Origin: Tubulanus polymorphus
Taxonomy: Eukaryota > Animalia > Nemertea
Assembly: GCF_964204645.1 (NCBI RefSeq)
Contig: NC_134026.1
Location: 19,440,150 to 19,504,149, forward strand
Length of the DNA stretch: 64,000 bases
Direction: 5' to 3'
A program made the position numbers and the translations under genes. Below the pieces are notes generated by a model. It was not told the DNA's origin. It worked only from the letters and a program-made list of their open reading frames with translations, and did not search any database. This document shows, piece by piece, positions 14,701-57,354 of the stretch; position 1 is the stretch's first letter, and each line of letters begins with the position of its first letter.

Positions 14701-17700
14701 TGTTCAGCGTTTCGCAACTTTTCATATAGTCATTGATTTTTCTTTGAGACTGTAATATCTGACACTTCTCACAGACATAAAGGCCATTTTCTTTTTCGCC
14801 TGGTCTGAAATGAATAATTCATGATGAAAGGTAAGAGACCCGTTAAATGACAATGTAAGCCTTTCAGATCATCGATAAAGTGTGTACGTATAGTAGTGGT
14901 ATCAAATATCTAACCCCTCAATTTACTTACAAGTTCTCCCATTCTTTTTGAAGTTTTGGTATGCCCCGCTTGGCCGTGCAAAACCTTTCTACTTAATCAT
15001 CTTAGAACCCCAGACTCAGAATTGGGTTTTTACTGCATATGCTGAACTTAATGGACAGCAAATAAAGCAATTGGATGCATATGCTGAATGCTATACAAAG
15101 TACTTGTATCTGCATGAATATCCCAGCGAAGCAGGCATGGACCATCGAAATAATACCACACAAAAAATTCCAGATAATTCTGTATATGTAGGGTAGGAAC
15201 TCTTTGCCTGCCTTTTCAAGAAGTGCTGCCCTTTCGCCAGGATTTCAGTGTTCTTCGGGAATCAATATAATAAGAATATTTTCATCAAATTGGTTTTAAT
15301 TGCTTTTTCAGGTCGAATTAGTAGCATTTCTTCTTAGATTTACAGTCTGTTGCAATCAACAGAACAGAAGTGTATTTTGCAGGTTTTGAATAGATATGCT
15401 ACATCCTTGGAATTCCACGTATCTTTCAAACCCTGCAGGGCCTCTGCTTTCTATTCTTTGCGATTGTCTACTTACTAGCATAAGGCATGAAACTTACAGG
15501 TATTTTGCATGACTTCACAAGAAACAACTTTTAGAAACAAGTCAACCATACCAGTGTGGTTTTGGCAGACAAGTTTCAGTCGTACCAGTACGTGTTTGGC
15601 AGGCAACAACGAGTTAATGAAATGAAATGGGTAAATACACTGGCATGTATGATACTTACTTGTTTTTCTGAAGCGTTTCCTTCAGATGTATAACGGCGTG
15701 AATGATGGCAACGATATATACGAAAAACACGGGTAAACATGGCAGGATGAAAGGGAACTGAGAGAAGAAACCTCCTGCTGCAAACGTATTCGGGTATTTC
15801 TCGACGGGCTGGGCTAGAAATCCTGTAAAACATGAATACTAAAATATTTGTACGTTGTGCATGTAAAAGAGTTTGATAAAATTACAAACGAAAAGAAAAT
15901 ACAATGTTATTTTTTTGGTATTTCCGGAAATGATATGGTGTCCCTTATAAGTGATAGTTTTGTTGTACGGCATGTTATTAAATCTTAGGTTTCTCATTAT
16001 TGTGATAGAATCATAATCACAGGGGCTTATCACATTTGATAATGTATTTGTCCACTCTGAATGACCACTTTCCCTATAAAGTATATATAAAATTATTATT
16101 ATCTTTAAATCTATATGTATAGGAATGTGATAAGCCCCTGCAATCGCCAAGTAGAATTATACAATGTTCATAGTAACAGTTTTTAAATCGAAATTTAACG
16201 TACCAGATATCGCAGGTCCAATCATTTTGCCACATCCAAATCCGAGCACCATAATCGAAATATAAGCACCTTGATTGGAGTTGTCGGATGATTCGTAAAT
16301 AACAGCTTTGATCACCCCGATCACTCCTGAAAAACAAAGAAACAAAGTTTCCATGATGGACAATCTTAGCTGACATGCAAACCAAATTCATCCAGAACAA
16401 ACTTTCATCATCCTCGCTTGGCAGGGATTTGAACCAGACAGCATTGCGCAACTCTGTTGATGAAACCTGCCACAGTACCTCCAATGAGATGGTATGTTCA
16501 ATCACAAATAAATGGATAGCTATAAATTGAATATTACAGGCTTAAAAGAAACTTGATTTGTGATTGGCTAATCATGATATCAGGGCTAAGTGCGCAAATA
16601 GCTGCGCGTTAGGGCTAATCAGGCAAGGTTTCATGCCTTGGTTGAGTCTAAATGCCATAAGGTTCAAATCCATGGTGCCTTATGATGTCATCAAATGCCA
16701 CGACTAAGATATTTTTGGAACTAACCCATGTGGATACATGGATATAAAATAAAACAAACATCGCCTAACACTATATTTGATGAGATTTATGAACTGATAA
16801 TACTGTTACTTTCCTTGTCTTTGACTGATTTAAACCATCTTACTACTGTACAGAAAAGTACTGATTTTCAAGATCAAAGACTCTTATTTTGCTTTGACTT
16901 AAAATGTGGCTGAAGCAATAAAGTGTCTCCAATGATTGCGTGCATGGATTTCAAAAATGGAAAATAAAAATCACCATATGTTAATCCAAAGAAAAATCTG
17001 TTTATGAGAGCAATGATCATTGTCGGGCAAAATCCAAATGTGACTGTCGTCAATGTTTGTAGAGCGAGTGTGATGAGTATGATGGGACGTCGACCGACTC
17101 TGTCAGATAACCAACCCCAGAAATAACTGAAAATATTAACAAACAAGCTCAAAATGATATCGTCGCAAAGCTCAATCCGCTGGGTCCCACCTGATTCTGG
17201 GTTGTGTCATGGTGGATGGGTAGATCATCCTTGGCTTTAGAAGGCTGGGTAATGCTCATAGCATATTCTATACTATAATGATTTTTGTAAAAGGTCTTTG
17301 CAATGATTTCAAGTCGGTTAAAAATGTGTTGATCCTTAGACAGTATATCTATCATATTATCGATCATATTCTACTAAAACCTTGCACGTAATGAACTCTT
17401 ACCTGGCCATAACCCTTCCTCCGTACATCGCAAATAACAAAATTCCTACGTAGTAACCTTTATCTTCTTCTTTATGTCCAATGAACTATCATGAAAGTTA
17501 CATTTTATGTAGTACGCACATCGGGACTAGCGGCGAAACATTGTGGTAAAAGTTTTTGTAAGAGTCAAACCCTGATCTAACGTGCGAATAAACCGAAACA
17601 TTGTGGTAAAATATAACCCTGATCTAACGTGCGAATAATGTGATAAGTTGACTAGAAAATGTTTGTGTTAAGAGGATAATCTTTATGATTAGAATCAGTT

Positions 17701-18874
17701 TTTCCTGAAGCATAAGAATCAAAATCATACAAAGCGCTACTTACCAAAATGTAGGCAGGCAAAAAGGAGGACATGAAGCTTATTGACATTGCCGTTGCAA
17801 ACTGTAATAAATCATCGGTATTTCTTCTGGGGTCATTTGCTCAGAAGTTGGTTTAAGATAATCAGGATAGTTGACGTAGTGACAATTCAGATTTCATTGT
17901 TATTATCGTACTTATCCGCCAGTTAACCAACTTTTGAGCAACTGGTCCCTGGATTTCTTATGAACTGAGTCAATTTTCGTAAGTTCCAAATGATTTGGAT
18001 TAAGTGAAATTTAGCATTTAGTGACGTAGAAGTCACAACTGGATTTTTTCTGAAGAACTTGGAATAGCAGAGTTGAAGGAAAAAAATCATGGGGGATTCC
18101 AGACGTCCTTGAATCCCCCCGAGCATTCAGGACTTGGTTCAATAGCTGTTCGTAAAAGTTCGACTCAGGATTTAAAACACTGCATATGAACTAAGGCCTA
18201 TTTCAACTTATGAGAGTCAAACTTCACCAACTGAGTTATCGGTTATTCTACAGCGGGACAGCGGCTTTTTGGATTATAAAATCAATGAAAGATTTCTCAT
18301 GGAATTCTCATGGTGAATTCGAGAGGTACTTGTGAACTATGTTGAAAAAAACCTTCATGATTTCATGAATCTCTTGGTATATTTAGCGTGAATTTCTCGG
18401 TGATTAACAAATCAATTGGGACGGGGACGTTATTTGGTCAAGTTGAATGGTTTATCGGTATAAAATGGCAAGTGAGATTATGTCCTAATGGGTTGATACA
18501 ACTGTAAGGCACTGTTGATTTCATAAAAAGCAATTTTCATGAATTTAACGCGGGAAATTTTAAACTATCCAAAATATGGCTGTGAAATCGTGAATGTCTC
18601 CATTTTCTTCCGTGAAAATGTGAATTCATAGGCCTACCCCTATTAGTCCCACCTGATTCTACTATTAGACAGTCCGATATAAATTTTCGGTTGGCTTTCA
18701 GAAGGCTAGCAATTATTCTTTGAAAGGATATATCCATGAAAAAACGAGTAAATAAACTTGCTTAAAACTTACCATTGCCGACAACACTACACCTAGTACT
18801 TTCCAATCTAGGGGAGTAGCACCTTCCCTTGAAAGGCGGCAAAGCCCGATCAATTTGGCTTTGACAGACGCCAT
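8796..18874 (-). CDS. ZIFL (zinc-induced facilitator-like) MFS transporter, paralogue 1, 594 aa; exons 18874-18773, 17801-17745, 17485-17403, 17126-16975, 16326-16204, 15822-15660, 14804-14349, 13797-13691, 13261-13143, 12146-12073, 11498-11337, 8982-8796
   Basis: Twelve GT-AG exons sum to 1785 nt in frame. MFS motif A (WGWLSDRVGRRP) and the ZIFL signature GPAISGFLAQPVEKYP...FPFILPC. Exon sizes match paralogue 2. Confidence 0.9.
9126..9836. mobile_element. PIF/Harbinger-type MITE
   Basis: TAA on both flanks; imperfect TIR of about 25 bp (AGCCAGGCGTAGGTCGGC / GCCGACCTACGCCCGCCT); GTCGCA-rich subterminal repeats. Confidence 0.75.
9903..10583. mobile_element. PIF/Harbinger-type MITE
   Basis: TIR GGCTCGTTCACA...TGTGAACGAG; many subterminal TAGACCGGTCTA-like palindromes. 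Confidence 0.7.
12505..13089 (+). mobile_element. Internally deleted piggyBac transposon
   Basis: TTAA TSD; 14-bp TIR CCCTTTCGCTACGT; retains an acidic N-terminus-like ORF stub (MAARKKVFSANQVLGKIYADDDSEDDDLDD). Confidence 0.85.
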
Positions 18875-19985
18875 ATCAGCTGAATTTCATCTCAAATTTG
18901 GTGATTCTGAAAAGCAGAAGAAAAGCTTTGTACTCAAGGTTCAGGTATTGCTGACTGACAAACTGAGAAAATCTAATCTAAATGTTAAGGCTAGGCAGAT
19001 GCACAAAACCATTGAAAATCTTAGTGCATCACTGCCATTACTAGTGTAGCGGTTGTAGTGTAAACATATAAAATAGTAATTCAGGTAGTGACTGCTGTTG
19101 TCCATAGGTAGCGTAGTCGTAGTCACTCTGCTGTGCCGGGGCGCTCGCTACACGGGTCCGCCTGGGTCGACCGCACTCGGGTAGTGAATACGGCAAGGAG
19201 ACTCTTGTCTTCCCCAGGAAAGTAAATGGTATAAAATATGTAGAATCTGTTCCTCTATTGAAAAATGTCGCTAAAAAGGGCGCTTAAGCAGTACGCTCTC
19301 CTCCAAACAGTCGCCTCCCTACTCCACGTAGCCTTAATCTGTGTGGCCAATACAGACCCCCCAACCCGCTCTCCTCAGAGTAATCCGCTTTAGGGGCTTT
19401 CCTCGGACGAAACTCGCAGTGTTGATTACTCGGCGGATATGGCTACCCCCATTCCAAGTGCCCTCTCGCACATAGCTGTCCCCCGACATCTCAGGAGCTA
19501 ATTGCGACTCATGCCAGATCTGTCAAACTAGTCGTATGCATAAGTGTTGTCCGTAGCGACGGTCAATAGGGGAACGATCCTCACGTAGAACTAAATGGGT
19601 TCGATGCAGCAGGAAAACAAACAGAAATCCTCGTCCTTCCTTCCAGTGCCGGCGAATCAAATAAACGCAAGATTCGAAGTTTGATTGGAATGTAGTACGA
19701 ATTATTAAATATATATATTTTCTTATAATACAAAGTTCATCGTTCTTGATGCCAAGGGGACATCATGTCCACACGCAAAACACCTTGATTATTTACATTT
19801 CGATATATAAAAAGAATGTGCCCTTCATGGCTTGCAAAGCCTTGGTACAGTCAATGTACGGTAGCATACAAAGGAGACGACCGAACGTCGAATAGAAGCG
19901 GTGGCGCGGCGGACTCCGGTGTGTATCTAATATCACTTAGGTCTCAGTAAACGAGCGTCGAAGCTAATCAACGATTAAGATGTTA

Positions 19986-20329
19986 ACGACGGAGCGTCAA
20001 GTAGTTAACGACGAGCGTTGTCGTTAATCAACGATAAGAATTATACGACGGAGCGTCAAATAGTTAACGACGAGCGTTGTCGTTAATCAACGATATGAAT
20101 TATACGACGGAGCGTCAAATAGCTAACGACGAGCGTTGTCGTTAATCAACGATATGAATTATACGACGGAGCGTCAAATAGTTAACGACGAGCGTTGTCG
20201 TCAATCAACGATAAGAATTATACGACGGAGCGTCAAATAGTTAACGACGAGCGTTGTCGTTAATCAACGATAAGAATTATACGACGGAGCGTCAAATAGT
20301 TAACGACGAGCGTTGTCGTTAATCAACGA
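19986..20329. repeat. Tandem array of six 59-bp hairpin-containing units (3' LTR copy)
   Basis: Units start at 19986, 20045, 20104, 20163, 20222 and 20281; consensus stem TTAACGAC-N7-GTCGTTAA. Confidence 0.95.
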
Positions 20330-21449
20330 CTGCGCGCCAAATTCAAAATGTCGGTGACGCGAACTCAAAGAGTCGAAATTCAGAGGCGACGTCAAGAAGA
20401 TGAAACGACCGCGCGTTCGTTCGAAAAAGGAGTTACTGAATACAGGTGATTTTCATGGTCAGCAGAAAGGACATCTCGGAGTAAAATTACGGAAATAGCA
20501 CAGAAGATATAGGCCTACCATACTATTATTATTACTATTACTAATTACAGCGACGAGAGCGTTAAGTCGGCATCGTTAGAGGATTGAATTTAAACAGACG
20601 ATGAACTGACGGAGAATTTACAATATTTACAGGATTGTAAGGGACGAGTTTATCGGCAGCCCATGGCCGACGACTACACGACCCCCGGGTGCGTCGGCAC
20701 TCGGGACTCACTGAGGGCGGGATGTCAAAAACCACTGCAGCGATCCCGGGGTCAGACGACCCGGAGGCCCGTGTCTTAATTAGAGAGTAAAATTGTCTTC
20801 TTACATGATCTGTACGATTTACAGCGTCCGATTCGTAGAACGGTGAAGAGGCAGCAAGAAGAGTTTCTAATGTGGCTCTGCCAGAGCCAAGTTGCCAATG
20901 AGCGCGATTGCGCCAAATTTATAGTTTTAATGCGGTCAACGCACGCGGTGATTGGTCAAGCGTGACGAGCAGTGATACGATCCGCGGACAAAGTAGAGCA
21001 CGCGAAATCATTCGACCGTGACGAATGATAAACCCTAAATAAAGACTTCATACGCGAGAAATAGAATTAAGTTCTATAATATTTTAAGATTAACGCGAAA
21101 AATGACGACTATAAGACCGATACGGAGATATTTACTAAAAATAAACCGGAGCTAACCGCACCACCGCGAAAACGCTCACACGGAAGTGAGGCGGCGCCAG
21201 CGAACGGCGTCGTAAAAACGAGCGTAAACACGAGCAGGGCTGGAGAATTCTCCGGCGACGAGACGGAACCAAAACGGCCCAAAATCAAAGAAGTTGGGTC
21301 TCGAATATAAAAAGGAGAACACACACTAATAGGTAGGTGGGGGATAAAAGAATGGCCTGGACAGGCGCCGAAAAATCGCTAATGTCACCGCGATGTGGCG
21401 TGGCCAACACCGCGGGGGCCTGCCCAGGTCGTGAAATTGGAATCTGACA

Positions 21450-22605
21450 CACAGGGGCTCGTTACGATAGCTGGGGGTCCAAAATCAAAGATTTGACCCA
21501 GTATCCTAGGTACCACCTATAAAAAAAGAAAAGGGAGCTAACATTTTGACATACTAGAATTGACCTTCTCATTTCAATCGCTGATTACTTCGTAACCCAT
21601 CGACCGATTCGCTCGAAATTGGTTTCGTTTCATTCCTAAGAGGTTACTTTTTCGTTTGAGACCTTCCGCGACAAAATCGGATAAGAGACACCCGAGAAAT
21701 CACGACTCAAATCCGAAAAAACGAGTCAAAATAGCCAAAGCCGGAATTACTAGGACGTCTCGGAGTAGTCGATTTCCGACGAAAAACGATGATTTGACGC
21801 GGTTCCCGGACGTTAATCTTCACATATCATACATCGCTGGAAAGCTTATGAACTGACCTTATTGACAGACGCGTTTATTTGATAATCCGTTCCGATACCC
21901 GCGACTGGCGAGCTGATAATCCAGATTGATGCGATAAATACGATTTCCAAGTGTATTCCGGCCGCCATTAACTGCGTGACGTCATGAGAAATCCCAGCAT
22001 GCAACGCTAGATAATTGACATATTCAGTCGACCAATCACGTATCGCGAATTTATCAGTCCTCAGAGCCCGTGACGTCACACCCTCAATGGCGGTTCAGTG
22101 ACGCTTAAAGTGCGTATTTATCGGTTCGGTGCGTATTATCACCTCGCTTGTCGCCGGTTTCGGAACGGATTATCAAATAAACGCATTTTTCAATAAGGTC
22201 AGTTCATAAGCTTTCCAGCGATGTATGATATGTGAAGATTAACGTCCGGGAACCGCGTCAACTCATCGTTTTTCGTCGGAAATCGACTACTCCGAGACGT
22301 CCTAGTAATTCCGGCTTTGGCTATTTTGACCCGTTTTTTCGGATTTGAGTCGTGATTTCTCGGGTGTCTCTTATCCGATTTTGTCGCGGAAGGTCTCAAA
22401 CGAAAAAGTAACCTCTTAGGAATGAAACGAAACCAATTTCGAGCGAATCGGTCGATGGGTTACGAAGTAATCAGCGATTGAAATGAGAAGGTCAATTCTA
22501 GTATGTCAAAATGTTAGCTCCCTTTTCTTTTTTTATAGGTGGTACCTAGGATACTGGGTCAAATCTTTGATTTTGGACCCCCAGCTATCGTAACGAGCCC
22601 CTGTG
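21450..22605. mobile_element. Foldback non-autonomous DNA transposon (possibly P superfamily) nested in the 3' LTR
   Basis: 8-bp TSD ATCTGACA (21442-21449 and 22606-22613); the other LTR has a single copy of this site. Termini CACAGGGG...CCCCTGTG; near-perfect TIRs of about 415 bp. Confidence 0.93.
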
Positions 22606-22825
22606 ATCTGACAGGACTGCCAAAAATCTGTCAGATTGAAATTGAGCCGAAAAGATCCCGAAACATCGCCGCAGAACACCCAGCCCCGCCCCGGAATACG
22701 TACATCTAAAAAGAAACAATGAGAAAAGAACGGCTTAAGGCCATTCCGAAATACATAATATAATTTCACAAAAGACCGACATTTTGTGGTCAAACCCACC
22801 CCAGATATTGACAATTTTCGCCACA

Positions 22826-22845
22826 AAAACCCCCGCCCAGCCTCA
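22826..22845 (-). other. Putative polypurine tract
   Basis: Minus strand TGAGGCTGGGCGGGGG-TTTT immediately 5' of the 3' LTR; G-rich but imperfect. Confidence 0.6.
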
Positions 22846-23160
22846 TACTACGCCTTAAGGCGATGAGGCGAAATGAATTTAAAGAAAATTGGATGTCATA
22901 ATGACAAAAAGCGAAAAAGGCCTAATCAAAAAGCAAGCCCGAAAGTAGAAGACCCGAAAATAGTACAAATTACAATTAATATTACATTTACAGGAAACGG
23001 GGTTCCGAGGTCCCGGCAAGCGGGCGGAGCTGAAGAGAACCGACGAGGGGACCAGGCACTCATCCGGAGTGCTCCGAATCAGCCTCCTCTCGGCCCTCAA
23101 CGACCCCCACCAGATCCCCGGAACATACGGAACACCGTAAAAACAGGTAAAAACAGACCA

Positions 23161-24436
23161 CTAATATACGTAAGGGATCTTGGCGGATTTGCAATCGATG
23201 GCGCACAGGACGCACGGACTGGGCCGACGGTCCAGGCCCCAGGTGGCGACGGGTCCGTGCGGAGTCGGATGTTGGTGTCGCAGGCCAAATACTGCTACGC
23301 GTCGCGGAGTGATCTCGTTCTCGGCGGGAGGCCATTCAATCCCATGGTGGGCTGCGAGGACCCGACACGCTGTGCAGGCGAAGGTTTCGGTAGGAGTCCC
23401 ACAGTATTGATACGCGGTACCCATCGCAGAGGGGTGATAGTGTAATGTCACATGCAGGCTACGGGTGGACGCCGAGCCAACCTCCTCGTCGCGTACAAGC
23501 ATGACGTGCTGGCCCGTGCCAACACCTACCAGTTCGTTCGTTCCTACGATAACTTCTGGCACACCAGCGTCAGCCAGGGCGAGCAGCCGCTGTTCCTCCT
23601 CTTCAATGCTCCTGGTGGGTATCACCGGCGTGATTTGGTTGTTCATCACCTGGAACTTGCCCGCTCCGGCCTCCGTCTCCGCGACGACTATCGGTGCAAC
23701 GACGGGAATGTCGGCCGACGAATTTGGAGAAGTCGCAGAAGGAGGGGCGTCCCCCTTGCTCAAAACGTGGTCAAAATCGGCCGGCATGTCCGGGCCGATA
23801 TCAGACGCGTGTGTCGTCTTCGGTGGCGACGCAATAGGAGTTAACACGGTCGGAGGCGTCGCGATCAGGGGCGGAGATGTTGATATCGGTTGCGGCGCAA
23901 TCTGGGGCGTCGCGATCGGTGTCGGTTTACCGGGTTCAAGCCGAGCTATCGCCTTCCTGGCTTCGAGGTCTCGACGAATCTCTAACCCTATACTGGTCTG
24001 TTGCGCCAGAAAGGCCGAGTCGAGCTGGCGGGCCTCCTCCGCGATGCGGTCGCTTGCAATCATGTTGGCCTTAACGCGTGCCCGATGGGCCCGGTCGGCC
24101 TCGCGTCGCGCCCGACGGTAGTCAGTGTGGCCGGGAGATTCTGAGATGGATAGAGCTGGATCTCGGTCCCACTCCTCAGTGCGCACGATTTTGCGCGGAG
24201 GTGAATTCTCGTCGCCCTCGGTGACGACCTCGTACCCCGGGTCGCGATTGGTCGTTTTTACATGATATTTTCCATGCTGCCGCGCGGAAAGTTTAGTACG
24301 TGAAATACGGCCGCAGTCGCGGCATTTGTAGCTGCGGCCTGCGACAGGCCGCCCCTCACACCCATCAGCATGCGCGTCGATCGCTTCTGAACGGAAATGC
24401 TTATAGCAAAAGCGACATTTAGTCTTGATGCTCGAC
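23161..24436 (-). CDS. Retrotransposon ORF3: zinc-finger/Arg-rich accessory protein, predicted 425 aa from a spliced mRNA
   Basis: Open frame of over 420 codons with CRFC-x11-H-x3-C and CRDC-x12-H-x3-H fingers, RRARREADRAHRARVK, a Pro/Thr linker and C-terminal CTAC...CVLC. A splice acceptor TTGTTATTACAG|G lies at 24437/24436. No AUG precedes the fingers (the track start is TTG). Confidence 0.8.
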
Positions 24437-24476
24437 CTGTAATAACAAAGTTGCAGATTTATATAAGAAAACCAGA

Positions 24477-27400
24477 TTAGACGGTCCAATCCCCGAACCT
24501 ATCGGGCAAGCGGGTTCTTCGATCAGATCTTCTACTAGAAAGGCCCTCAGAGGGCATCGCACCTAGGGGCGAATCAACGGCCACATAGGGCTTCAATCGA
24601 TCGAAATGTATATATTTGACATTGTGGTTTTCGAGATTCTCAACACCAAAGACCACGTCGTTGACAATGCGCGTGACTGAAAACGGACCAGTCCAAAGAC
24701 AGGACAATTTCTTGGTCTGTCGGGCCGAAATGGCGGGCGTGTAAACCCAGACTAAATCTCCGATATTATAAGTAGAGCCGCTCTGTCGCAAATCGTAACT
24801 TCTCTTATTTCGTTTCGTTCTTATTTCCAGGTTGCGTCGAGTCAATGCAAACGCGGTTTCAAGACGCTCTTTAACTTCGATCGCATACGATTTAGTTGGA
24901 AGAGGAGAGTGTTCCGCCGCGGATGTACCGGATACAATTTGAAGCGGTAAGTTAATTTCACGCCCGAACATCAAATAATTCGGAGTAAAACCAGTGCTAT
25001 CATGCACGGAAGCACGGTACGCCATAGTTAAGAAAGGTAATTGTTCGTCCCAGTCAGTCTGGTTAGAATTCACAGTCATAGCGAGGCCGTCTAAAAGAGT
25101 CCGATTGTACTTCTCGCACAACCCGTCGGATTGCGGGTGATAGGCCGTTGTACGGGTTTTCTGCATCTCGAGCAGTTCGCATATCTCTCTAACTAGTTTC
25201 GATTGGAAGTTCGTGCCTTGGTCACTATGGAATTGGCGGGCTACCCCATACCTCGAAATGAATTCTCTCACTAAGGTCGTTGCCACGGTAACAGCTGTCT
25301 GATTGGGTAGAGCATAGGCTTCTACCCACCGAGTGAAATAGTCGGTCACAACTAAGATAACTGTATTGCCAGAGTCAGTCTCGGGGAGAGGACCTAGAAT
25401 GTCGAGTGCGATTCGTTCGAGTGGTAGTCCCACTCTGTAATCTTTCATAGCGGCCCTTCTCTTCTTAGGGGTGGTCTTTCTTGACGCGCAGATATGACAC
25501 TGTTGACACCAGAGTTTAATGTCCTCATGGATTCCGTGCCAGAAATATTGACCATGGACGGCGGCGAGAGTCTTCTTTACTCCGAAATGTGCCGAAGTAC
25601 GGGAGTTATGGATGGAGTTAAAGACTTCTTTTCGATACTTTCTCGGGAGGAGTAGGAGCGTTGAATCGGGATGTCCAGCGCGTTCCTTGCTTATAAATAG
25701 TTTACCGTCAATCAGTTTTAATTGTGTCCATCGAGCCCAGTAGAACTTGGTCGAAAGCCCAAGGCTGGAGACATCTTGCCAGGCAGGCCTGTCGCCGGAC
25801 TTGAATCTTTCCACTATCCAAGATAGCTCCGAGTCAACTGCCTGTTCATTTATCAATTGCTGAGTCGTCCATTCGGTTGAACTTAACAGGGTGGTCCCAG
25901 ATCTAGGTATATTTCGTTGTTCGATGTTAATGTTTCTAATTTTGGTTCTGTCATTACAGGGAGAAATATCGCCCTGAAAGTTTGAAGAAGAACGGAGGCA
26001 GCTTGCACACTCTCGGCGTGAAAGACCATCAGCATTGGTGTGAAAACGACCGGGTCGATGTTGAATCTTGAATCGATACTCGGCCAAGGCGGTTATCCAT
26101 CTTGCGGTCTGTCCCTCTGGCTCCTTGAATGACATCAGCCACCGAAGTGACGCGTGGTCAGTCCTGAGGAGGAATTCTCTCCCAAGTAAGTAGTGTCGAA
26201 AATGTTTCACATAAGTTATAACTGCGAGCAACTCTCGCCTAGTGGTACAATAGTTTCTCTCCGGTTTGGAAAGGACACGGCTACCATACGCGATCACCCT
26301 TTCCTGTCCGTCCTGCGGCTGAGATAGCACTCCTCCGAGCCCCACTCCAGAAGCATCGCAATCTAGAATGAATGGTAAATCGGGGTCAGGATAGGCTAAG
26401 ACTGGTGGCGACATCAACATCTCTTTCAATCGGATGAACGCATCTTCGCAGTCTGATGTCCAGGTAAACTTCCTGTCTTTCTCGGTTAATTTATACATCG
26501 AGTGAGCGACGGAAGAGAAATCCGGGCAGAAATTTCGATAATACGACGCCAGGCCGAGGAATGATCGGACATCAGTTGGACACTTCGGTGTAGGCCAGTT
26601 CTTGATGGCTTCAATCTTAACAGGATCGCAGGCGACTCCCTCTTCTGAGACGATATGGCCTAGGAAAGTGACGCTTCTCTGGAAAAATTGACACTTCTTA
26701 GGTTTGAGCTTCAACCCGGAACGTCTGATTCGGTCAAAGACCGCCCGTAGATTCTGCAGAGTCTCGTCGAAGGATCTTCCGTATACGATGATATCGTCGA
26801 GATAAATTAAACAAATCTCATTTTGCAGCCCGCGCAAAACCTGCTCCATCAATCTTTCAAACGTGGCGCCCGCGTTGCATAGACCGAACGGCATACGCTT
26901 AAACTGATAAAGGCCATTTCGTACTACGAATGCTGTTTTCTCTTTAGCTTCTTCAGACAACTCCACCTGCCAATATCCTGAGGCTAAGTCCATCGTGCAA
27001 AAGTATTTCGATCCTGACAAAGAGCGAATCGAATCATCTATTCGGGGAAGCGGGTACGAGTCAAGCTGCGTACACGAGTTCAATGCCCGGAAATCTACGC
27101 AGAACCGTGTGGAACCATCTTTCTTCCCGACCAACACGATATTCGAGCACCAAGGGCTGGATGAAGGTTCTATCACGTCTCGGTTTAGCATGTCTTCCAC
27201 CATTTCGTCTGCTGTCTCTTGTTTCGATATGGGCATCCGCCTCGCCCGCTGTTTGATAGGGCGGCTCCCATTGGTGTCAATGTCGTGTGTCACGCCCTGG
27301 GCTAAACCCAAATCAGTGTCCGATTTCGAAAATATGTCAGAGTATTCTAGTATGAGCTGTCTCGCTTGTTCTCCCTCAGTAGGACTCAAATTCTCAAGGG

Positions 27401-28346
27401 TTCTCGCAATTAAGTCCACTAAATGATCAGGCTCTCTCTGGTCGGGTTGTAATTCTAGCTCGGTTATGCCGATCTGATTCATGCTTGAGCCGCCAACTCG
27501 GCTGATGGTGCTGAGATAGCCCAGGGTTGAACCCTTATGAATGGTTATCGTTTCCGGGGTCGGATTCATAACCCTTGCTGGTAGAAATTTCTTCTCTGTG
27601 TCTACAAGACTACGTGCGGTGAGAAATTGGTGTTTATGGGAAAGTCGCGATGACTCTATTATTGCCCATTTTCCAGTATGGTGTTGAACATCTACGAGTC
27701 CATCAACTATCTGTTCCGAAAATGGCTGAAGGATAACTTTCCGCCGGCTTCGTACTCGAGTGTTATTCTCGTCAAGATTACAGTGCTTTCCGTAAAACAG
27801 TTGCTCATCACCCAAAATCAAGCTCTTCCGTCCGGGAAATATCTTACAGTCGAAAAATTCTAGAAAGTCCATGCCGAGTATGACATCTTCTGATATATCA
27901 GCAATCACGAATTTCCAGGGAGTCGATTTATCGAAGATCTTAGCGTCGATCTCCATCTGACCTTTGACCTCAATACCTAAGCCATTGGCCGTACTCAATG
28001 CAACATCTGACATCTCTAATTTATCTTTCATCGCAGGACGAAGTCGATTATAAATCTTGCTATTTACAACGGAGACGCAAGCTCCCGTGTCAATCAAATA
28101 ATTTACATTGATTTCTCCTATTTTTCCGTGTATGATTATGCTCGTTGAATTTCTGCTCATTTGATAAATCTTTCTGATTTCTTTAATTTTAGGAGTTGGA
28201 GTATGATGATTTAATGAAGGAAATGAGAGTTCTTCTACTTGCGCGGCTGGCCGGACTCTCGAGGAGCCAACCGTCCCTCGTTTCCCTGATGCCTTGATCT
28301 GCGACATTCTCGAGAAATGTGGCCGGGCTCTCCGCAGGCGTAACAA
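24477..28346 (-). CDS. pol: Pol polyprotein (protease, RT, RNase H, integrase) in the -1 frame relative to gag
   Basis: LIDTGA protease, YLDD RT, CDAS RNase H, HHCC plus HSDQG integrase core, WTGPF module; no chromodomain. Confidence 0.97.
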   Translation of the reverse strand: MLRLRRARPHFSRMSQIKASGKRGTVGSSRVRPAAQVEELSFPSLNHHTPTPKIKEIRKIYQMSRNSTSIIIHGKIGEINVNYLIDTGACVSVVNSKIYNRLRPAMKDKLEMSDVALSTANGLGIEVKGQMEIDAKIFDKSTPWKFVIADISEDVILGMDFLEFFDCKIFPGRKSLILGDEQLFYGKHCNLDENNTRVRSRRKVILQPFSEQIVDGLVDVQHHTGKWAIIESSRLSHKHQFLTARSLVDTEKKFLPARVMNPTPETITIHKGSTLGYLSTISRVGGSSMNQIGITELELQPDQREPDHLVDLIARTLENLSPTEGEQARQLILEYSDIFSKSDTDLGLAQGVTHDIDTNGSRPIKQRARRMPISKQETADEMVEDMLNRDVIEPSSSPWCSNIVLVGKKDGSTRFCVDFRALNSCTQLDSYPLPRIDDSIRSLSGSKYFCTMDLASGYWQVELSEEAKEKTAFVVRNGLYQFKRMPFGLCNAGATFERLMEQVLRGLQNEICLIYLDDIIVYGRSFDETLQNLRAVFDRIRRSGLKLKPKKCQFFQRSVTFLGHIVSEEGVACDPVKIEAIKNWPTPKCPTDVRSFLGLASYYRNFCPDFSSVAHSMYKLTEKDRKFTWTSDCEDAFIRLKEMLMSPPVLAYPDPDLPFILDCDASGVGLGGVLSQPQDGQERVIAYGSRVLSKPERNYCTTRRELLAVITYVKHFRHYLLGREFLLRTDHASLRWLMSFKEPEGQTARWITALAEYRFKIQHRPGRFHTNADGLSRRECASCLRSSSNFQGDISPCNDRTKIRNINIEQRNIPRSGTTLLSSTEWTTQQLINEQAVDSELSWIVERFKSGDRPAWQDVSSLGLSTKFYWARWTQLKLIDGKLFISKERAGHPDSTLLLLPRKYRKEVFNSIHNSRTSAHFGVKKTLAAVHGQYFWHGIHEDIKLWCQQCHICASRKTTPKKRRAAMKDYRVGLPLERIALDILGPLPETDSGNTVILVVTDYFTRWVEAYALPNQTAVTVATTLVREFISRYGVARQFHSDQGTNFQSKLVREICELLEMQKTRTTAYHPQSDGLCEKYNRTLLDGLAMTVNSNQTDWDEQLPFLTMAYRASVHDSTGFTPNYLMFGREINLPLQIVSGTSAAEHSPLPTKSYAIEVKERLETAFALTRRNLEIRTKRNKRSYDLRQSGSTYNIGDLVWVYTPAISARQTKKLSCLWTGPFSVTRIVNDVVFGVENLENHNVKYIHFDRLKPYVAVDSPLGAMPSEGLSSRRSDRRTRLPDRFGDWTV

Positions 28347-29353
28347 ACGATGCGATTAGGGAGACGCCTACCGGCATCCGCAGGGGGGCGTTGCTGAGTC
28401 AACACTTGCTTCACCATTGAGGTTAGTTGAGCGACTTGTTCTTTTAACCCTTCAATTTCTCCACGGGGTTCCGATTTAACCTGATTCACGAAGCCATGCG
28501 AGTTTCTCTCCCGAACATCTTCTAGTTTCTCGAATGCCTCGAGTTCTACCGCTAATTTCACGACCTCATCTAATGACGTACTATGACTCTGATGAAGGCG
28601 CATTCTCAAATCTCTATCATCCAAAGCATCGATAAAATGGTTTCGTGTTAATCGGTCTCGTTGAGTCGGAGTTAAATCAGGGTAAGCCTTGGTTGCCAAG
28701 GTGATTAATACCTGCGAGAGCTCTCTCAGGCCTTCATTTCGTTTACGACGTCTGTTTCTTATTTCAGCCAAAAATAGTTCAGCCTGATGACCATGTCCAA
28801 AGCGATTGTCGAGCACTCTGACCAGTTGCTGAAAATCTCGCCTCTCCTCGTCGACGAGTGTACATACTAGTTGTCGGGCTGGACCACGAAGATGAGCAAA
28901 CAGGATATCGGCTTTAAGACGTCCGTTCCAGCCATTAATTCGGGCTACAGTCGCGAAAACTTGGAGATAATCAGGCCATGAGCCGTCTCCGGAAAACGTC
29001 TCGGGTCTGATATTATATAAATTATGAACAGTCGAGCTATAGCCGGCGGTTGCTGGGCCGATCGGTGCTGTCTCACGCTCAAAGGGCCTCGGTCGGTCGA
29101 TTTCATCATTGAAAGGAAGGTCAGTGATGTCGTCCCTCGATTCTGTCATCGTACGAGTCTCATCACTGGTAAGTCGGCTTAATGACCCGTCTTGAGAACC
29201 GTCGCCGGAGGCTGATTGAGTAACCTCGCGATCTCTATTAAGGTCAAGGTCTTGATCAAATCGTACATGTCGTTCATCTCCCTGACTATGGGATCTGCTC
29301 TTTGCCTTGCCTCGGGTACGTGAGCGACCTCTCGTCATGTCATTATTTTCCAT
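28235..29353 (-). CDS. gag: Gag, 372 aa
   Basis: PETFSGDGSW and LRGPA capsid-like motifs; CCHC knuckle CYACGEPGHISREC. Confidence 0.95.
   Translation of the reverse strand: MENNDMTRGRSRTRGKAKSRSHSQGDERHVRFDQDLDLNRDREVTQSASGDGSQDGSLSRLTSDETRTMTESRDDITDLPFNDEIDRPRPFERETAPIGPATAGYSSTVHNLYNIRPETFSGDGSWPDYLQVFATVARINGWNGRLKADILFAHLRGPARQLVCTLVDEERRDFQQLVRVLDNRFGHGHQAELFLAEIRNRRRKRNEGLRELSQVLITLATKAYPDLTPTQRDRLTRNHFIDALDDRDLRMRLHQSHSTSLDEVVKLAVELEAFEKLEDVRERNSHGFVNQVKSEPRGEIEGLKEQVAQLTSMVKQVLTQQRPPADAGRRLPNRIVCYACGEPGHISRECRRSRHQGNEGRLAPRESGQPRK
28244..28286 (-). promoter_or_regulatory. Programmed -1 ribosomal frameshift signal
   Basis: G GGA AAC heptamer in gag phase (28286-28280), a 6-nt spacer, then stem CGGTTGGC/GCCAGCCG. 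Confidence 0.85.
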
Positions 29354-29562
29354 TTTTACTTATAGCTGAATTAGAAGACGAACGATTAGAATGACGCCGC
29401 GCAAGAAGGTTGAAAGGAAAAACCAATTTAAATATATATGATAAGCTGATCACTGGAAGAAGGATTTCTGCTGCATCGGAAAAATAAACTAGCCCTAACC
29501 CGTCACTCGTCAAGTCAAACGAAAATTAATACTTTCAATAAGGGAAGTATTTTGATAAATAG

Positions 29563-29580
29563 ATCCCACCGCTGCCACCA
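29563..29580 (-). other. Primer binding site for tRNA-Leu
   Basis: TGGTGGCAGCGGTGGGAT is complementary to the metazoan tRNA-Leu(AAG/TAG) 3' end ATCCCACCGCTGCCA+CCA; it lies 4 nt from the 5' LTR. Confidence 0.9.
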
Positions 29581-30525
29581 TTTTTGTAGCGGTTGTAGTG
29601 TAAACATATAAAATAGTAATTCAGGTAGTGACTGCTGTTGTCCATAGGTAGCGTAGTCGTAGTCACTCTGCTGTGCCGGGGCGCTCGCTACACGGGTCCG
29701 CCTGGGTCGACCGCACTCGGGTAGTGAATACGGCAAGGAGACTCTTGTCTTCCCCAGGAAAGTAAATGGTATAAAATATGTAGAATCTGTTCCTCTATTG
29801 AAAAATGTCGCTAAAAAGGGCGCTTAAGCAGTACGCTCTCCTCCAAACAGTCGCCTCCCTACTCCACGTAGCCTTAATCTGTGTGGCCAATACAGACCCC
29901 CCAACCCGCTCTCCTCAGAGTAATCCGCTTTAGGGGCTTTCCTCGGACGAAACTCGCAGTGTTGATTACTCGGCGGATATGGCTACCCCCATTCCAAGTG
30001 CCCTCTCGCACATAGCTGTCCCCCGACATCTCAGGAGCTAATTGCGACTCATGCCAGATCTGTCAAACTAGTCGTATGCATAAGTGTTGTCCGTAGCGAC
30101 GGTCAATAGGGGAACGATCCTCACGTAGAACTAAATGGGTTCGATGCAGCAGGAAAACAAACAGAAATCCTCGTCCTTCCTTCCAGTGCCGGCGAATCAA
30201 ATAAACGCAAGATTCGAAGTTTGATTGGAATGTAGTACGAATTATTAAATATATATATTTTCTTATAATACAAAGTTCATCGTTCTTGATGCCAAGGGGA
30301 CATCATGTCCACACGCAAAACACCTTGATTATTTACATTTCGATATATAAAAAGAATGTGCCCTTCATGGCTTGCAAAGCCTTGGTACAGTCAATGTACG
30401 GTAGCATACAAAGGAGACGACCGAACGTCGAATAGAAGCGGTGGCGCGGCGGACTCCGGTGTGTATCTAATATCACTTAGGTCTCAGTAAACGAGCGTCG
30501 AAGCTAATCAACGATTAAGATGTTA

Positions 30526-30869
30526 ACGACGGAGCGTCAAGTAGTTAACGACGAGCGTTGTCGTTAATCAACGATAAGAATTATACGACGGAGCGTCAAA
30601 TAGTTAACGACGAGCGTTGTCGTTAATCAACGATATGAATTATACGACGGAGCGTCAAATAGCTAACGACGAGCGTTGTCGTTAATCAACGATATGAATT
30701 ATACGACGGAGCGTCAAATAGTTAACGACGAGCGTTGTCGTCAATCAACGATAAGAATTATACGACGGAGCGTCAAATAGTTAACGACGAGCGTTGTCGT
30801 TAATCAACGATAAGAATTATACGACGGAGCGTCAAATAGTTAACGACGAGCGTTGTCGTTAATCAACGA
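30526..30869. repeat. Tandem array of six 59-bp units (5' LTR copy)
   Basis: Same units and same variant positions as 19986-20329. Confidence 0.95.
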
Positions 30870-31338
30870 CTGCGCGCCAAATTCAAAATGTCGGTGACGC
30901 GAACTCAAAGAGTCGAAATTCAGAGGCGACGTCAAGAAGATGAAACGACCGCGCGTTCGTTCGAAAAAGGAGTTACTGAATACAGGTGATTTTCATGGTC
31001 AGCAGAAAGGACATCTCGGAGTAAAATTACGGAAATAGCACAGAAGATATAGGCCTACCATACTATTATTATTACTATTACTAATTACAGCGACGAGAGC
31101 GTTAAGTCGGCATCGTTAGAGGATTGAATTTAAACAGACGATGAACTGACGGAGAATTTACAATATTTACAGGATTGTAAGGGACGAGTTTATCGGCAGC
31201 CCATGGCCGACGACTACACGACCCCCGGGTGCGTCGGCACTCGGGACTCACTGAGGGCGGGATGTCAAAAACCACTGCAGCGATCCCGGGGTCAGACGAC
31301 CCGGAGGCCCGTGTCTTAATTAGAGAGTAAAATTGTCT

Positions 31339-31497
31339 TCTTACATGATCTGTACGATTTACAGCGTCCGATTCGTAGAACGGTGAAGAGGCAGCAAGAA
31401 GAGTTTCTAATGTGGCTCTGCCAGAGCCAAGTTGCCAATGAGCGCGATTGCGCCAAATTTATAGTTTTAATGCGGTCAACGCACGCGGTGATTGGTC
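31339..31497 (-). promoter_or_regulatory. Predicted LTR promoter, first exon and splice donor
   Basis: CCAAT (31495-31491), TATAAA (31463-31458), Inr-like TCATT about 25 nt downstream, donor AT|GTAAGA at 31345/31344. Confidence 0.65.
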
Positions 31498-32826
31498 AAG
31501 CGTGACGAGCAGTGATACGATCCGCGGACAAAGTAGAGCACGCGAAATCATTCGACCGTGACGAATGATAAACCCTAAATAAAGACTTCATACGCGAGAA
31601 ATAGAATTAAGTTCTATAATATTTTAAGATTAACGCGAAAAATGACGACTATAAGACCGATACGGAGATATTTACTAAAAATAAACCGGAGCTAACCGCA
31701 CCACCGCGAAAACGCTCACACGGAAGTGAGGCGGCGCCAGCGAACGGCGTCGTAAAAACGAGCGTAAACACGAGCAGGGCTGGAGAATTCTCCGGCGACG
31801 AGACGGAACCAAAACGGCCCAAAATCAAAGAAGTTGGGTCTCGAATATAAAAAGGAGAACACACACTAATAGGTAGGTGGGGGATAAAAGAATGGCCTGG
31901 ACAGGCGCCGAAAAATCGCTAATGTCACCGCGATGTGGCGTGGCCAACACCGCGGGGGCCTGCCCAGGTCGTGAAATTGGAATCTGACAGGACTGCCAAA
32001 AATCTGTCAGATTGAAATTGAGCCGAAAAGATCCCGAAACATCGCCGCAGAACACCCAGCCCCGCCCCGGAATACGTACATCTAAAAAGAAACAATGAGA
32101 AAAGAACGGCTTAAGGCCATTCCGAAATACATAATATAATTTCACAAAAGACCGACATTTTGTGGTCAAACCCACCCCAGATATTGACAATTTTCGCCAC
32201 ACTAGTCTTTTTCAGTATCTGCATTTTTCATTCATCTTTGCTTGAGAGGACGTTGGGTGGCCTAACACAAGTCAGTTTAGGTACGGCATACCTGATATAG
32301 GGCTTCAAAGGACCAGCAAAGCTAAACCAAAACATTGATTTTCAATTCATTTTACTCACTGTAGGCCTGTAAAAGGATTGCCAAAAAGTTCATTGAATGG
32401 GGTTGCATCATATGAGCATGAGGGGTTTTTACAAGTATTTTCTGAAATCTTAATAAAAAGACGAAAACGTGTTAAATTTTGCCAGGGGAAATGCTCTGGA
32501 GAGGGGTGTGACATTATATGTGGTAGTGAAGAAGTTATTACCGGTATTTAGTCTAATAGTAAACCGTAACATTAGGCCTAACTACAAATGATATTCAGAC
32601 TATATCGGTATGTGCTACCAAAACTGCCCGAGCTAGAGCTTAGACCACCTGCTTGCAGTCTGAAAGCTAGTTGTCGTTACGGGTTCCCCTACATCCTACA
32701 TCTGTTGTTTGTTTGAGGAACAACGGCTAATTAGGTACTAGACTAACCCACGTGCCGCCAGGCCAGGGGCAAGTTTTTAAATAGTGACATTCAGGCCTAC
32801 TTTTTATTTGAATTTGCATTGTAGTG

Positions 32827-39828: not shown

Positions 39829-42800
39829 TCACGAAAATGTATCGGCCTTCTTTTGTTTGTCTAAACTCACTGGTAGAAACAGATCACAGAAAATACATAT
39901 TGCGAAACATATGCTCAGCATTACGAATGCAAAGTTCACGTCGAAAGGATATCCGAGATTCACTCCGCTTGAGATCGACCATGCAAACATACTACCACTG
40001 AACAATGGCCCCAAACCCCTGAAATGAAAATGGAAATTTACGTAGATATACTGGTACTAGCCATAAACATCAAAGGGTCCGTAAGTTTCCATAGACAAGT
40101 GAGTGTCTGATATTTAACGAAGTAAAAATCCACAATATAATGAAACAGCAGCCTGTTGGCTGATATATCTCTGCCGCGTGTTGTTCATTTCATCATTCTT
40201 CATTTATCTAAATGCCCCAGGTTCCACGAGAAGGACTAGTAAAAGTTCCTATACTAGAGCAACTCCTGGAGGTCGAATCCCAAAACAAGGGTTGTATATG
40301 GGCCGAAGCAGAGCTGAAAGTTTTGATCCAATTCTATGGGCTATTTTCAAAAAATGAAGAAAAAGTTTTTGAAAATGGCTCATAGAATCAGGTCAAAACG
40401 TCAAATTCTCATTTAGTTTTTTCATTACATTGTGGATTTGTACTTCAACAAAGGGTCCGTCCAAATCAAATACAGTAAAAAATGTACCGTGATTTCCTAC
40501 TCATTTGAAGTGCCCTAAACAACATGAGGCTTGATATTTATTACCAATATACTTCAACCAAATGAAAATCCAGATCCACTGATAGGATGAAGCAAGTAAC
40601 CAATATGAAAACACTCCTGTCAGCTCCGCCAGAACAATGAATGATCAAATATACATTTTGACAAGAGAAATTTCGAGAATACCAGACTAAGGCAATTTGC
40701 AGAATCATGTCAAGTAACCCCCAGTTGCTTACCTTCCACAAGAAGACAACATAAGTGATAAGCCATTTATAGCTCCAGCCATTGCAGGGCTGCAACAGTT
40801 ATTCACGAAGATCGATGCCGCCGAAAAACAGCAAGCGCTTGCGATTTTTATAACACCAACGATGGAAACCAATAATACCCACAGCAAGACAGTTCTAAAA
40901 TATTGCAAAAAAAAGTTTTTCTTAACCCTCTCAGTGCTGACTTATTAATAGCCTATAGTGCTGGAGATAATTTGAAAATTTTGAATAATTCCACCCTAGT
41001 ACGTTGAACAACGGGAATACCACTATAGTGCGTCTACACCGCAGCGTGATGTATCATTAGTTACTATTATTTCAGTATGTTTGACATGAACTGCCATCTT
41101 TCAAGAGAGATAATTACTAATTACTTATTACATCAATACACCGCAATGCGGTGTACTAGCAAAGATCCATCACTGATTCATACACCGCACTGCGGTGTAG
41201 ATGCACTGAAAGGGTTGATATGCAGATTAGTATTGCCGCTCAAGTCAGGTCTTTTCGGAAAGTGAAAATTAATGTTCGAATTGATCTGAGTTGGCTGTAA
41301 CCGTATATGATTCATGTCGGGTGAAAAAAGTATTGCAAAAACACGCGAGCTAAACGATTGCATCAAGTTGATTGGATGCCTTCTTGAGTGGAGTCTACTG
41401 TAGTATATAGATGCATGGGCTAATTTGGTCCTTTCGTCTTCATTCAGCACATTCTGCGTTGCACCGCTCAAGATTTCTCATATAATTATGCGCTACATAT
41501 AATTTTAGATTTAGTTAGTCGACTTCAGCAAATTATATGGCTCATAATCACAACTGATCCCCAACTGGTACCTGACAGTAGATGCAGCAACACTTCAACT
41601 ACTGACAAAATGTGAGCTTTTTTTAATAGTAAACTCATTATCAAGATTCTTGTAGCACCAACCCAACAAAGGCATGTCATACTCACTGATCTTCTATGAG
41701 ATGAGTTATTGGCAGTAGCGCTGTCATGATCATCACCGTAACACAGGAAACGAGGAAAGTCTGAAAAATAGCAGTGTATATATTTTGGTTACTTATCCAT
41801 TTAGAAATTGTGGGTTTTGATATAAAATATGTACAATTTTGTAAGCGGTAGATCAATAATGAAAGTAAACTGGTAACAGCAAAAATACAGCATGTATCTA
41901 AAGACACAGCTTTTGACCGCTTAGTTCGATACATAAAAACTTTAATTCGGGAACAAGAAATGAGCTACCTAACCCTTATCTTGAAAAGATAATTTATGGA
42001 AGCATCCTGGATACATATTTGTAGAAAAAATTTCGAAGTTAGGCTAAAAAAATTTGATACCTTGTTTCTCCTTTCTGCTGAGCTTATCTACGCTGTACAT
42101 AAACTTTTTATTATACTAGGAGTCCGGGCACACCATGCCCACTTGGAAAGTTTCCGACATACTATTAACTTTTAAATAACAGACCATTTAAGATACAGTA
42201 CCTTTCTGGCACCAATTCTGCGTTCCAACAGTGCAAACAAAAACAGCTGTATAATCAATACAGGTGGGGACATTATTCCAAGCACCGATCCAATATCATT
42301 TGTATCGAAGCCAAGTCCATCTAGAAAATTTCAAGAAATTTATGAAAAGTTATAATTGGTCCATTTTGGACGAACAGGATATTTGGGTTTCATCCACTTG
42401 TTATTTGACTGACTTTACAATATTCACAAACGCATGTACATGTATGTAACGCGTATTCGAGATTGTGGCAAGTACGAAGTAAGTAAATATTCAAACCTAA
42501 ATGAGTTGCGGTGGATGCCCAAATTGGAAAAACTTCATCAATAGCAGTTACTGTAGCAGCCATGATTGTGTAGAGAGTCACTGTTATTCTAATTTCACTG
42601 CGCCTATAATTGAAGCAGTTATAGAAATTGCCAGGCATTAGTCCTGATATTCCACGTACACGCATACCAGTATAATCTTAACATATTTCATAATTCAAGT
42701 TTCTCCCATCAAACATGTTTTGACAGAAAATACCTAGAATGTGGCAACGCCACGGATGTCTCCATTGCAGGTAAGCCAACAATAAAGGGGCAAGAAATTG

Positions 42801-56744: not shown

Positions 56745-56787
56745 CGAGCAATGTTTCGGCTAAATTATATTAGCCATCATCAGGCTT
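56745..56787 (-). ncRNA. Degenerate minimal hammerhead ribozyme motif (Penelope-type)
   Basis: AGC-CUGAUGA-U-GGCUAA(UAUAAU)UUAGCC-GAAAC-AUU-GCU; stem III is not canonical. Confidence 0.45.
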
Positions 56788-57023
56788 ACTGAGAATAAAG
56801 TGAAGTAACGGAATATTTATATGTACAAACATCGAACAAGGGGATACAGATTGAAGGATTAAGATTAAAGACAAAACACAAGTTTGATATGATCACCGTA
56901 AATTTAACTAAACCAATTCAGAAATTGATCTAATAATCCCAATTAGTGACATTTCAAAAGATTGATGCATCTGATTTTATGGTTGTTAATGGAATGGTAG
57001 TTAATTATTCTAATCGATATTCC

Positions 57024-57354
57024 CGGTAACAATTAAAAATCCCCCCTGGTAAAAATCCCCAAAATTTGATTTCTCAGCAAAATATAGTAAAAAACTTAGG
57101 CCTAAATAGTTTTCAAAAATTTCAAGTTTTCACTGGTGTTTATCACAATAGGCCTATTTACCTTGGATAATCTATGTCTTTTATCAAGCTACGTGCATGA
57201 AAATCACATTATTCTGTGACTTTTAGCAAGCAACAATGCGTAAAAAATGATATAATTGTAGTTTTGAAAAACTCTATGAAGAAATCTAGTTTAAAAGTAA
57301 TAGTAGAATATCTTTGTACCCTAAAATTACCGGGGGGATTTTTACCTGTTAACG
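57024..57354. mobile_element. MITE with AAAAATCCCC subterminal repeats; diverged inverted copy at about 59390-59781
   Basis: GGTAAC...GTTAAC ends; internal homology in reverse (ccttggataatct/agattatccaagg, caagctac/gtagcttg). Confidence 0.6.

Follow-up and report, generated by a model that had tools for sequence, protein, structure and literature searches.

A predicted split start codon in the long terminal repeat of an env-less Ty3/Gypsy retrotransposon of Tubulanus polymorphus

How is a protein begun when its reading frame offers no AUG ahead of the domains with which it opens? The question is raised by an element in a stretch of 64,000 nucleotides (nt) of the nemertean Tubulanus polymorphus (NCBI RefSeq assembly GCF_964204645.1, contig NC_134026.1, positions 19,440,150 to 19,504,149), referred to here as the window and numbered from its first letter. 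At 19045-32201, on the minus strand, the window holds an intact, env-less long terminal repeat (LTR) retrotransposon of the Ty3/Gypsy group (Metaviridae). Its third open reading frame (ORF3) has its first native in-frame ATG at 24063, which corresponds to residue 126 of the predicted product and lies beyond both of its N-terminal zinc fingers. We consider it probable that the start codon of ORF3 is assembled by splicing, with AT supplied by a donor in the LTR and G by the ORF3 exon, while unspliced RNA would read AUG-stop at the same place. The features on which this proposal depends are given below, a vertical bar marking a predicted exon boundary.

31491..31495, minus strand: CCAAT box, a sequence motif
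31457..31463, minus strand: TATA box TATAAAT, with transcription predicted to start near 31433
31339..31347, minus strand: predicted donor CAT|GTAAGA overlapping the first AUG, boundary 31345/31344
24436..24480, minus strand: predicted ORF3 acceptor TTGTTATTACAG|G, boundary 24437/24436, with a branch-like CTAAT overlapping the pol stop and a TATA-like box at 24465
23161..24436, minus strand: ORF3, in the third frame and in the env slot, 425 aa if started at AT|G

Transcription from the LTR would begin near 31433, and an 89-nt first exon ending in AT would be joined to 24436. The first ATG below the TATA box, at 31346, reads ATG-TAA and overlaps the donor AT|GTAAGA, which is also the first GTRAG below that box; an ATG followed by T[AG]AG is found at just 10 of the 2,459 ATGs of the window. 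Joining 31345 to 24436 yields AT|G in frame, and the 424 codons that follow are open as far as the stop at 23161, while in unspliced RNA the same bases would be read as AUG-UAA. A first-pass annotation of this DNA had named these motifs together with a second acceptor, upstream of gag, and all of them are present at the coordinates and in the frames that it gave; it was also right that ORF3 has no AUG before its zinc fingers.

The two predicted splice sites were scored on small training sets, 19 host donors and 21 host acceptors from two paralogous host genes in the window. The LTR donor, which had been called strong, is moderate: it reaches 5.4 bits, with 5 of the 19 host donors lower, and ranks third among the 131 GTs of the leader and beyond the top 12 of the 442 overall. 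A T at its position -1 is forced by the split codon, and a deliberately middling donor would allow full-length RNA, with the primer-binding site (PBS), to survive. The ORF3 acceptor reaches 9.2 bits, which equals the host median, and ranks second among the 506 AGs of the predicted transcription unit. A filter combining an AG-free zone, pyrimidines and a branch motif, chosen after the data were viewed, passes 3 of 525 AGs, including the ORF3 and gag acceptors. Moreover, a diverged variant of the element, judging by its loose ends at 24459 and 24424, matches just 24424-24459, a segment that comprises the ORF3 acceptor and the first 13 exon bases.

Our comparison of copies revealed purifying selection on ORF3, which extends to the 124 codons that precede the first AUG in its frame. 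Among the 40 best-supported of 312 variants between this copy and others, 15 of the 22 differences in ORF3 are synonymous, where 25-29% would be expected (p 3e-5 to 2e-4), and the proportion upstream of the first Met is 6 of 10 (p 0.02-0.04). Each of the other two frames over ORF3 gives only 3 of 22. Given this selection, the AUG-less finger region appears to be translated and, if so, needs a start supplied from elsewhere.

A further line of evidence comes from distant relatives found by a metagenome scan, in which 80 of 116 loci were kept (26-46% integrase identity; the contig of the closest protein, P0001, at 56% in integrase, is outside these 80). A finger-led (C2H2-like) ORF follows pol in 38 of the 58 loci with at least 500 nt past the pol stop, representing 24 DNA families, at a distance of 55-1,744 nt from pol. 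Under a 15-nt rule set after viewing, an acceptor-like AG lies no more than 15 nt upstream of the ORF3 ATG in 13 of the 22 families with an ATG of their own, compared to 15 of 615 control ATGs. The independent host matrix places an acceptor before ORF3 in 11 of 22 families against 54 of 477 controls, up to three ATGs being considered per family and one per control. This enrichment suggests that a spliced finger-ORF3 is a recurring design among Gypsy relatives; no account of a Gypsy clade in which the third ORF is finger-led and preceded by acceptors was found in the open-licence literature. The proposed assembly of the ORF3 start thus rests on an acceptor of host quality, on selection in the part of ORF3 that has no AUG, and on the acceptors before ORF3 in distant relatives.

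Several observations weigh against it. The strongest acceptor-like site of the element is at 25974, in pol, in phase 0 and between RNase H and integrase, so that motif strength does not prove use. Near-equal competing donors occur at 31251, 31063 and 30323, and AT|GTAAAT at 30336 and 28106 would also yield AT|G. A TATA-like box precedes ORF3 as well (24465), and such boxes stand before ORF3 in 6 of 22 relatives versus 14 of 477 controls. Weak evidence in favour of the donor comes from LTR copies of about 84-92% identity, in which the listed changes flank 31336-31351, where the donor lies, with none inside, and none falls in the 12-nt stretch holding the CCAAT box or the 13-nt stretch holding the TATA box. 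By permutation the two boxes together give P 0.04; the donor alone gives P 0.09, which is not significant. Since three variants lie outside those listed and the change counts per contig exceed them, the conservation of the donor in these copies is suggestive only. The variants of the selection test, 40 of 312, may be linked. In a tree of 46 integrase rows, which included no errantivirus reference, the finger-ORF3 relatives group in a clade of their own, which is sister to this element and does not include it (support 97/92). Profiles of their ORF3 give no match to the present ORF3, with which they have no detectable homology, and none of the finger-ORF3 relatives examined has an in-frame AT|G. 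The relatives therefore lend support by analogy only, and their p-values overstate independence.

The first-pass annotation went further, and proposed that the same donor is also joined to an acceptor just above gag, which would make it a three-way switch. The features at issue are as follows.

29563..29580, minus strand: PBS, 4 nt past the LTR, which we take to be complementary to tRNA-Leu
29432..29438, minus strand: TATA-like box 85 nt ahead of the gag AUG, which could act as a rival, internal promoter for gag
29365..29390, minus strand: predicted weak gag acceptor, boundary 29366/29365, with a branch-like CTAAT and 78 nt free of AG
28235..29353, minus strand: gag, 372 aa, with one CCHC knuckle

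Genomic, gag-pol and ORF3 RNAs would then be three separate species. As had been stated, a junction of 31345 and 29365 reads AT|C and is followed 12 nt later by the gag ATG (29353), and about 2 kb of leader, the PBS included, would be lost in a predicted intron of 1,979 nt. Over its 2,080 nt the leader counts 21 ATGs ahead of gag, which makes scanning of unspliced RNA unlikely, and gag-pol therefore probably needs a bypass; splicing to 29366 would strip these AUGs and the PBS from gag-pol RNA. Besides its long AG-free zone, the site has CTAAT at -21 and a CAG 12 nt before the gag ATG, it is among the few AGs that pass the post hoc filter, and an acceptor-like AG as near as this occurs at just 1-2% of control ATGs. 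However, it scores 2.3 bits, below the weakest of the 21 host acceptors (3.1), and ranks 14 of 506, a score lowered in part by the C at +1 and the small training set. Of 15 gag starts in relatives, each set at the first ATG in frame and lying behind a leader shorter than here, none has an acceptor-like AG in the 15 nt upstream and one has it in the 30 nt upstream; the host matrix gives a strong score for one of the 15.

The gag splice branch is thus weak, and the full three-way switch is in our opinion unlikely. Among the possible bypasses, splicing to 29366 is tentatively the single most likely, ahead of the other two. Shunting or internal entry is a doubtful second, shunting requiring neither this splice nor an internal promoter, and a promoter at 29438, which would bypass the upstream AUGs without splicing, comes third and is rather unlikely. 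Of the earlier proposal, the ORF3 arm is supported indirectly by its acceptor, by selection and by the acceptors of relatives; the gag arm, and with it the division of genomic from gag-pol RNA, suffers from the weak acceptor, its absence from most relatives and the rival box at 29438. In related elements acceptors recur before ORF3 but seldom before gag, and the donor, unchanged in the listed diverged LTR copies, could not be anchored in distant relatives.

Another possibility would be that internal promoters, rather than splicing, generate both the gag-pol and the ORF3 mRNAs, in the manner of env in Oikopleura Tor3b/4b; the env of Tor elements is reported to be made by splicing or from an internal promoter (PMC4402516). 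The boxes at 29438 and 24465 are two of the seven TATA-like boxes in the element, the gag ATG is the first ATG below the former, and the enrichment of such boxes before ORF3 in relatives points the same way. We nevertheless regard this explanation as improbable. A start near 24435 would leave six out-of-frame ATGs and no in-frame AUG before residue 126, so that the fingers would be left untranslated and the selection upon them unexplained; internal promoters fit gag better than ORF3.

Alternatively, ORF3 might be spliced at 24437 and still take its start from the phase-2 donor at 30336 or 28106, or unspliced RNA might be translated from a near-cognate codon; in either case the AUG-stop at 31346 would be incidental. 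AAT|GTAAAT at 30336 and 28106 would provide AT|G, in-frame ATGs occur upstream of 30336, and TTG, ATC, ATA and CTG lie in frame at 24489-24456. On the other hand, these donors are situated behind many upstream AUGs or inside pol, while the first AUG of the RNA is that at 31346. The pol/ORF3 overlap shows no AUG, and ORF3 of the relatives lies at varied distances from pol. We give this explanation still less credit than internal promoters. A fusion of pol and ORF3 by frameshifting was rejected, as no slippery site is visible at the overlap. Finally, it is very unlikely that the motifs arose by coincidence and that no ORF3 protein with fingers is made: motifs resembling donors and acceptors are indeed common and ORF3 has no homologue in protein databases or in the relatives, but the synonymous excess is confined to the ORF3 frame, which is open for 424 codons and has an acceptor of host quality at its 5' edge.

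The proposed splice from the LTR to ORF3 has partial counterparts in known systems. Spliced errantivirus env, invoked as a precedent at the outset, holds as one, and the AT|G split start itself is already published. In gypsy of Drosophila, the AT of the env start comes from the 5' splice site and its G from the 3' splice site (PMC2585583), and env of the springer subclade is described as spliced to an AU dinucleotide (bioRxiv 10.1101/2023.08.03.551782). The present element resembles both in having a third ORF after pol whose start would be made by splicing an upstream AT to G. However, ORF3 of gypsy and springer is an F-type envelope with a signal peptide and a membrane anchor, whereas here it is a soluble zinc-finger orphan, and the element is not an errantivirus by the envelope test. 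The donors also differ: that of gypsy is described in the gag region and that of Springer 43 nt downstream of the 5' LTR (PMC13097621), while here the donor is inside the LTR and upstream of the PBS. The LTR-located donor and the zinc-finger ORF3 thus set this case apart from the published ones. No paper on an LTR-located split start for a finger ORF3 was found in the open-licence literature (most subscription papers being outside this scope), nor was one on a Gypsy element whose gag-pol RNA loses the PBS with a leader intron. For MDG1 elements, the passage cited reports that no splicing was seen (PMC11952523).

Other systems share individual traits. Foamy viruses are reported to have their major donor in the R region of the LTR, upstream of the PBS, from which several subgenomic mRNAs are fed (PMC5035957; PMC5902531), and gag is said there to be translated from genomic RNA by shunting (PMC5902531). 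The position of the donor and a long leader with short ORFs are thus common to both; yet these are retroviruses, not Gypsy elements, and the cited parts of those papers do not describe a split start codon. For BARE1 of barley (PMC3735527) and for Ty1/Copia elements of Arabidopsis (PMC5580714), the RNA that is translated and the RNA that is packaged are reported to form distinct pools, and a gag RNA is spliced. These, however, are Copia elements; the BARE splice is reported to lead to an RNA for Gag alone, and the pools to be distinguished by cap and poly(A). Mammalian MaLR/ERVL LTRs are described as carrying a promoter, a splice donor and sometimes an AUG, and as able to drive host genes (PMC5538554). 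The AUG is whole in their LTR exon, in contrast to the split one predicted here, and the cited account treats them as cases of host-gene co-option.

A functional parallel may be offered by Cer1 of Caenorhabditis elegans, in which the Cys-rich protein CERV, encoded in the env slot and made from a spliced mRNA, is reported to be needed to export unspliced RNA (PMC10309623; PMC3315495). Both are env-less Gypsy elements with a Cys-rich accessory ORF in the env slot, splicing being a prediction in our case. CERV, however, is reported to share gag exons, and GAG/POL to come from apparently unspliced RNA. Sharing of gag exons by ORF3 was not found: two donors with 7/9 consensus matches in or below gag-pol give no gag-frame start, and none lies in gag.

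The protein itself comprises two N-terminal zinc-finger-like motifs, an Arg-rich predicted helix, a Pro-rich linker and two C-terminal CxxC motifs. It has no membrane segment (highest 19-residue hydropathy, 1.11), no Pfam family above cut-off and no Pfam envelope match; searches of 5.8 billion clustered proteins and of 1.84 billion representatives gave no homologue. Its single-sequence fold is poor (mean pLDDT 42) except for one confident helix at 101-165. Atlas matches, to be taken as leads only, are to unnamed clusters (0.91-0.93) and to C2H2/matrin-type fingers (0.88-0.89) for the N-terminus, and reach 0.86 for the C-terminus. By analogy with CERV, ORF3 may act in the nucleus, binding nucleic acid and regulating the RNA of its own element, a role that we propose tentatively. 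The more extensive scheme, in which one LTR donor yields an AUG-stop genomic RNA, a PBS-less gag-pol RNA and a zinc-finger protein that exports unspliced RNA like Rev or CERV, seems distinctly unlikely as a whole.

The remaining features of the element are listed below.

29585..32201, minus strand: 5' LTR, 2,617 bp, TG...CA at its ends; the element is flanked on each side by the 4-bp target duplication CTAG
30491..30869, minus strand: 59-bp tandem array of 6.4 copies, within the LTR and the predicted intron
28280..28286, minus strand: slippery heptamer G GGA AAC in the gag frame, with a predicted -1 frameshift into pol
24477..28355, minus strand: pol, open for 1,292 codons, with protease, RT, RNase H and integrase in that order (Pfam)
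19045..22825, minus strand: 3' LTR, interrupted by an insertion, with a second copy of the promoter at 20923 and of the donor at 20805/20804
21450..22605, strand unassigned: DNA-transposon-like non-coding insertion in the 3' LTR, 1,156 bp, with 493-bp inverted repeats and an 8-bp duplication

The two LTRs show zero mismatches over 2,405 + 220 bp, and together with the CTAG duplication this indicates a very young insertion; the 1,156-bp inverted-repeat element entered U3 of the 3' LTR later than the retrotransposon's own integration. The PBS behind the 5' LTR and a purine tract ahead of the 3' LTR are both present. The heptamer suggests a -1 frameshift from gag into pol. Named pol relatives among the best 120 matches include sequences from a clam, a sponge and a pseudoscorpion (33-45% identity), and no gag homologue was detected at 1e-10 in the protein search. 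The 59-bp array was rejected as a specially stable structure, as it folds no better than shuffles (z -1.4), and ATTAAA at 31471 as a poly(A) signal, as most copies differ at 31469; AATAAA is absent from the LTR.

Further copies were seen in runs X1-X4, which are of unrecorded kind and DNA-like (LTR cover far exceeds internal cover, and flanks at the LTR ends are varied). Among the joints listed for the copies, with three more outside the list, none falls at the predicted splice junctions, which is uninformative where contigs are DNA; run X5, presumed to be RNA, gave no match to the element. Diverged LTR subfamilies (31414-31535, runs X1-X3) have the CCAAT-TATA-start region in common and a different sequence below 31414. 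A deletion derivative in runs X2 and X3 has lost 24616-28008, most of pol, and keeps gag, the ORF3 acceptor and ORF3. This deletion shows a 6-nt microhomology; it was rejected as a splice, having GT-AG ends in no register.

Among the distant loci, L026 (near 9940; L025/L026/L033) has a finger ORF3 that follows a phase-0 acceptor and lacks an ATG of its own; the ATG is retained in L057, a close relative. In L026, too, the start may come from an upstream exon. CAT|GTAAGT in L026, L041 and L055 was discarded as a conserved donor, its position being unanchored and giving no in-frame ORF3 start. The closer loci L003, L006, L007 and L012 contain no finger ORF. In a Gypsy subclade, the third ORF has a conserved C-terminal domain of about 100 aa that belongs to no Pfam family and contains two CxCxxCxxH motifs about 63 residues apart; the loci with this domain are the following.

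L018, L020, L024, L027, L031, L032, L037, L041, L042, L060, L085, L087

Viral contigs yielded one unrelated locus and prokaryote genome contigs 10 distant loci, a further search of each giving none. The Gypsy contigs filed within bacterial genome bins, L002-L011, are likely host contamination.

The surroundings of the element include two paralogous multi-exon genes of MFS-like transporters, at 8805-18907 and about 39841-51580, both on the minus strand; one transporter exon matches MFS_1 at E 2e-7, below the family cut-off. The element has the same orientation as the MFS-like gene downstream of it and lies 138 nt above the acceptor (18907) of its first coding exon, and the donor of the 3' LTR is 1,898 nt upstream of that acceptor. 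By analogy with Springer, this donor could drive an isoform of the host gene. A pair of 131-bp inverted repeats 4.6 kb apart, at 55393-60244, is possibly a DNA transposon.

To conclude, if the splice to ORF3 takes place as predicted, the split start of fly endogenous retroviruses would also be in use in a distant Gypsy lineage, for an accessory gene that is not an envelope gene. Because the donor would work from inside the LTR, every solo LTR would amount to a promoter with half a start codon and could be spliced onto host exons. Should the gag splice also be real, it would be a simple answer to the problem of separating RNA for translation from RNA for packaging. If, beyond this, the three RNA species and a Rev-like export protein existed, control in the style of complex retroviruses would operate in an env-less invertebrate Gypsy element, in which the translated RNA would be physically incapable of being reverse-transcribed.

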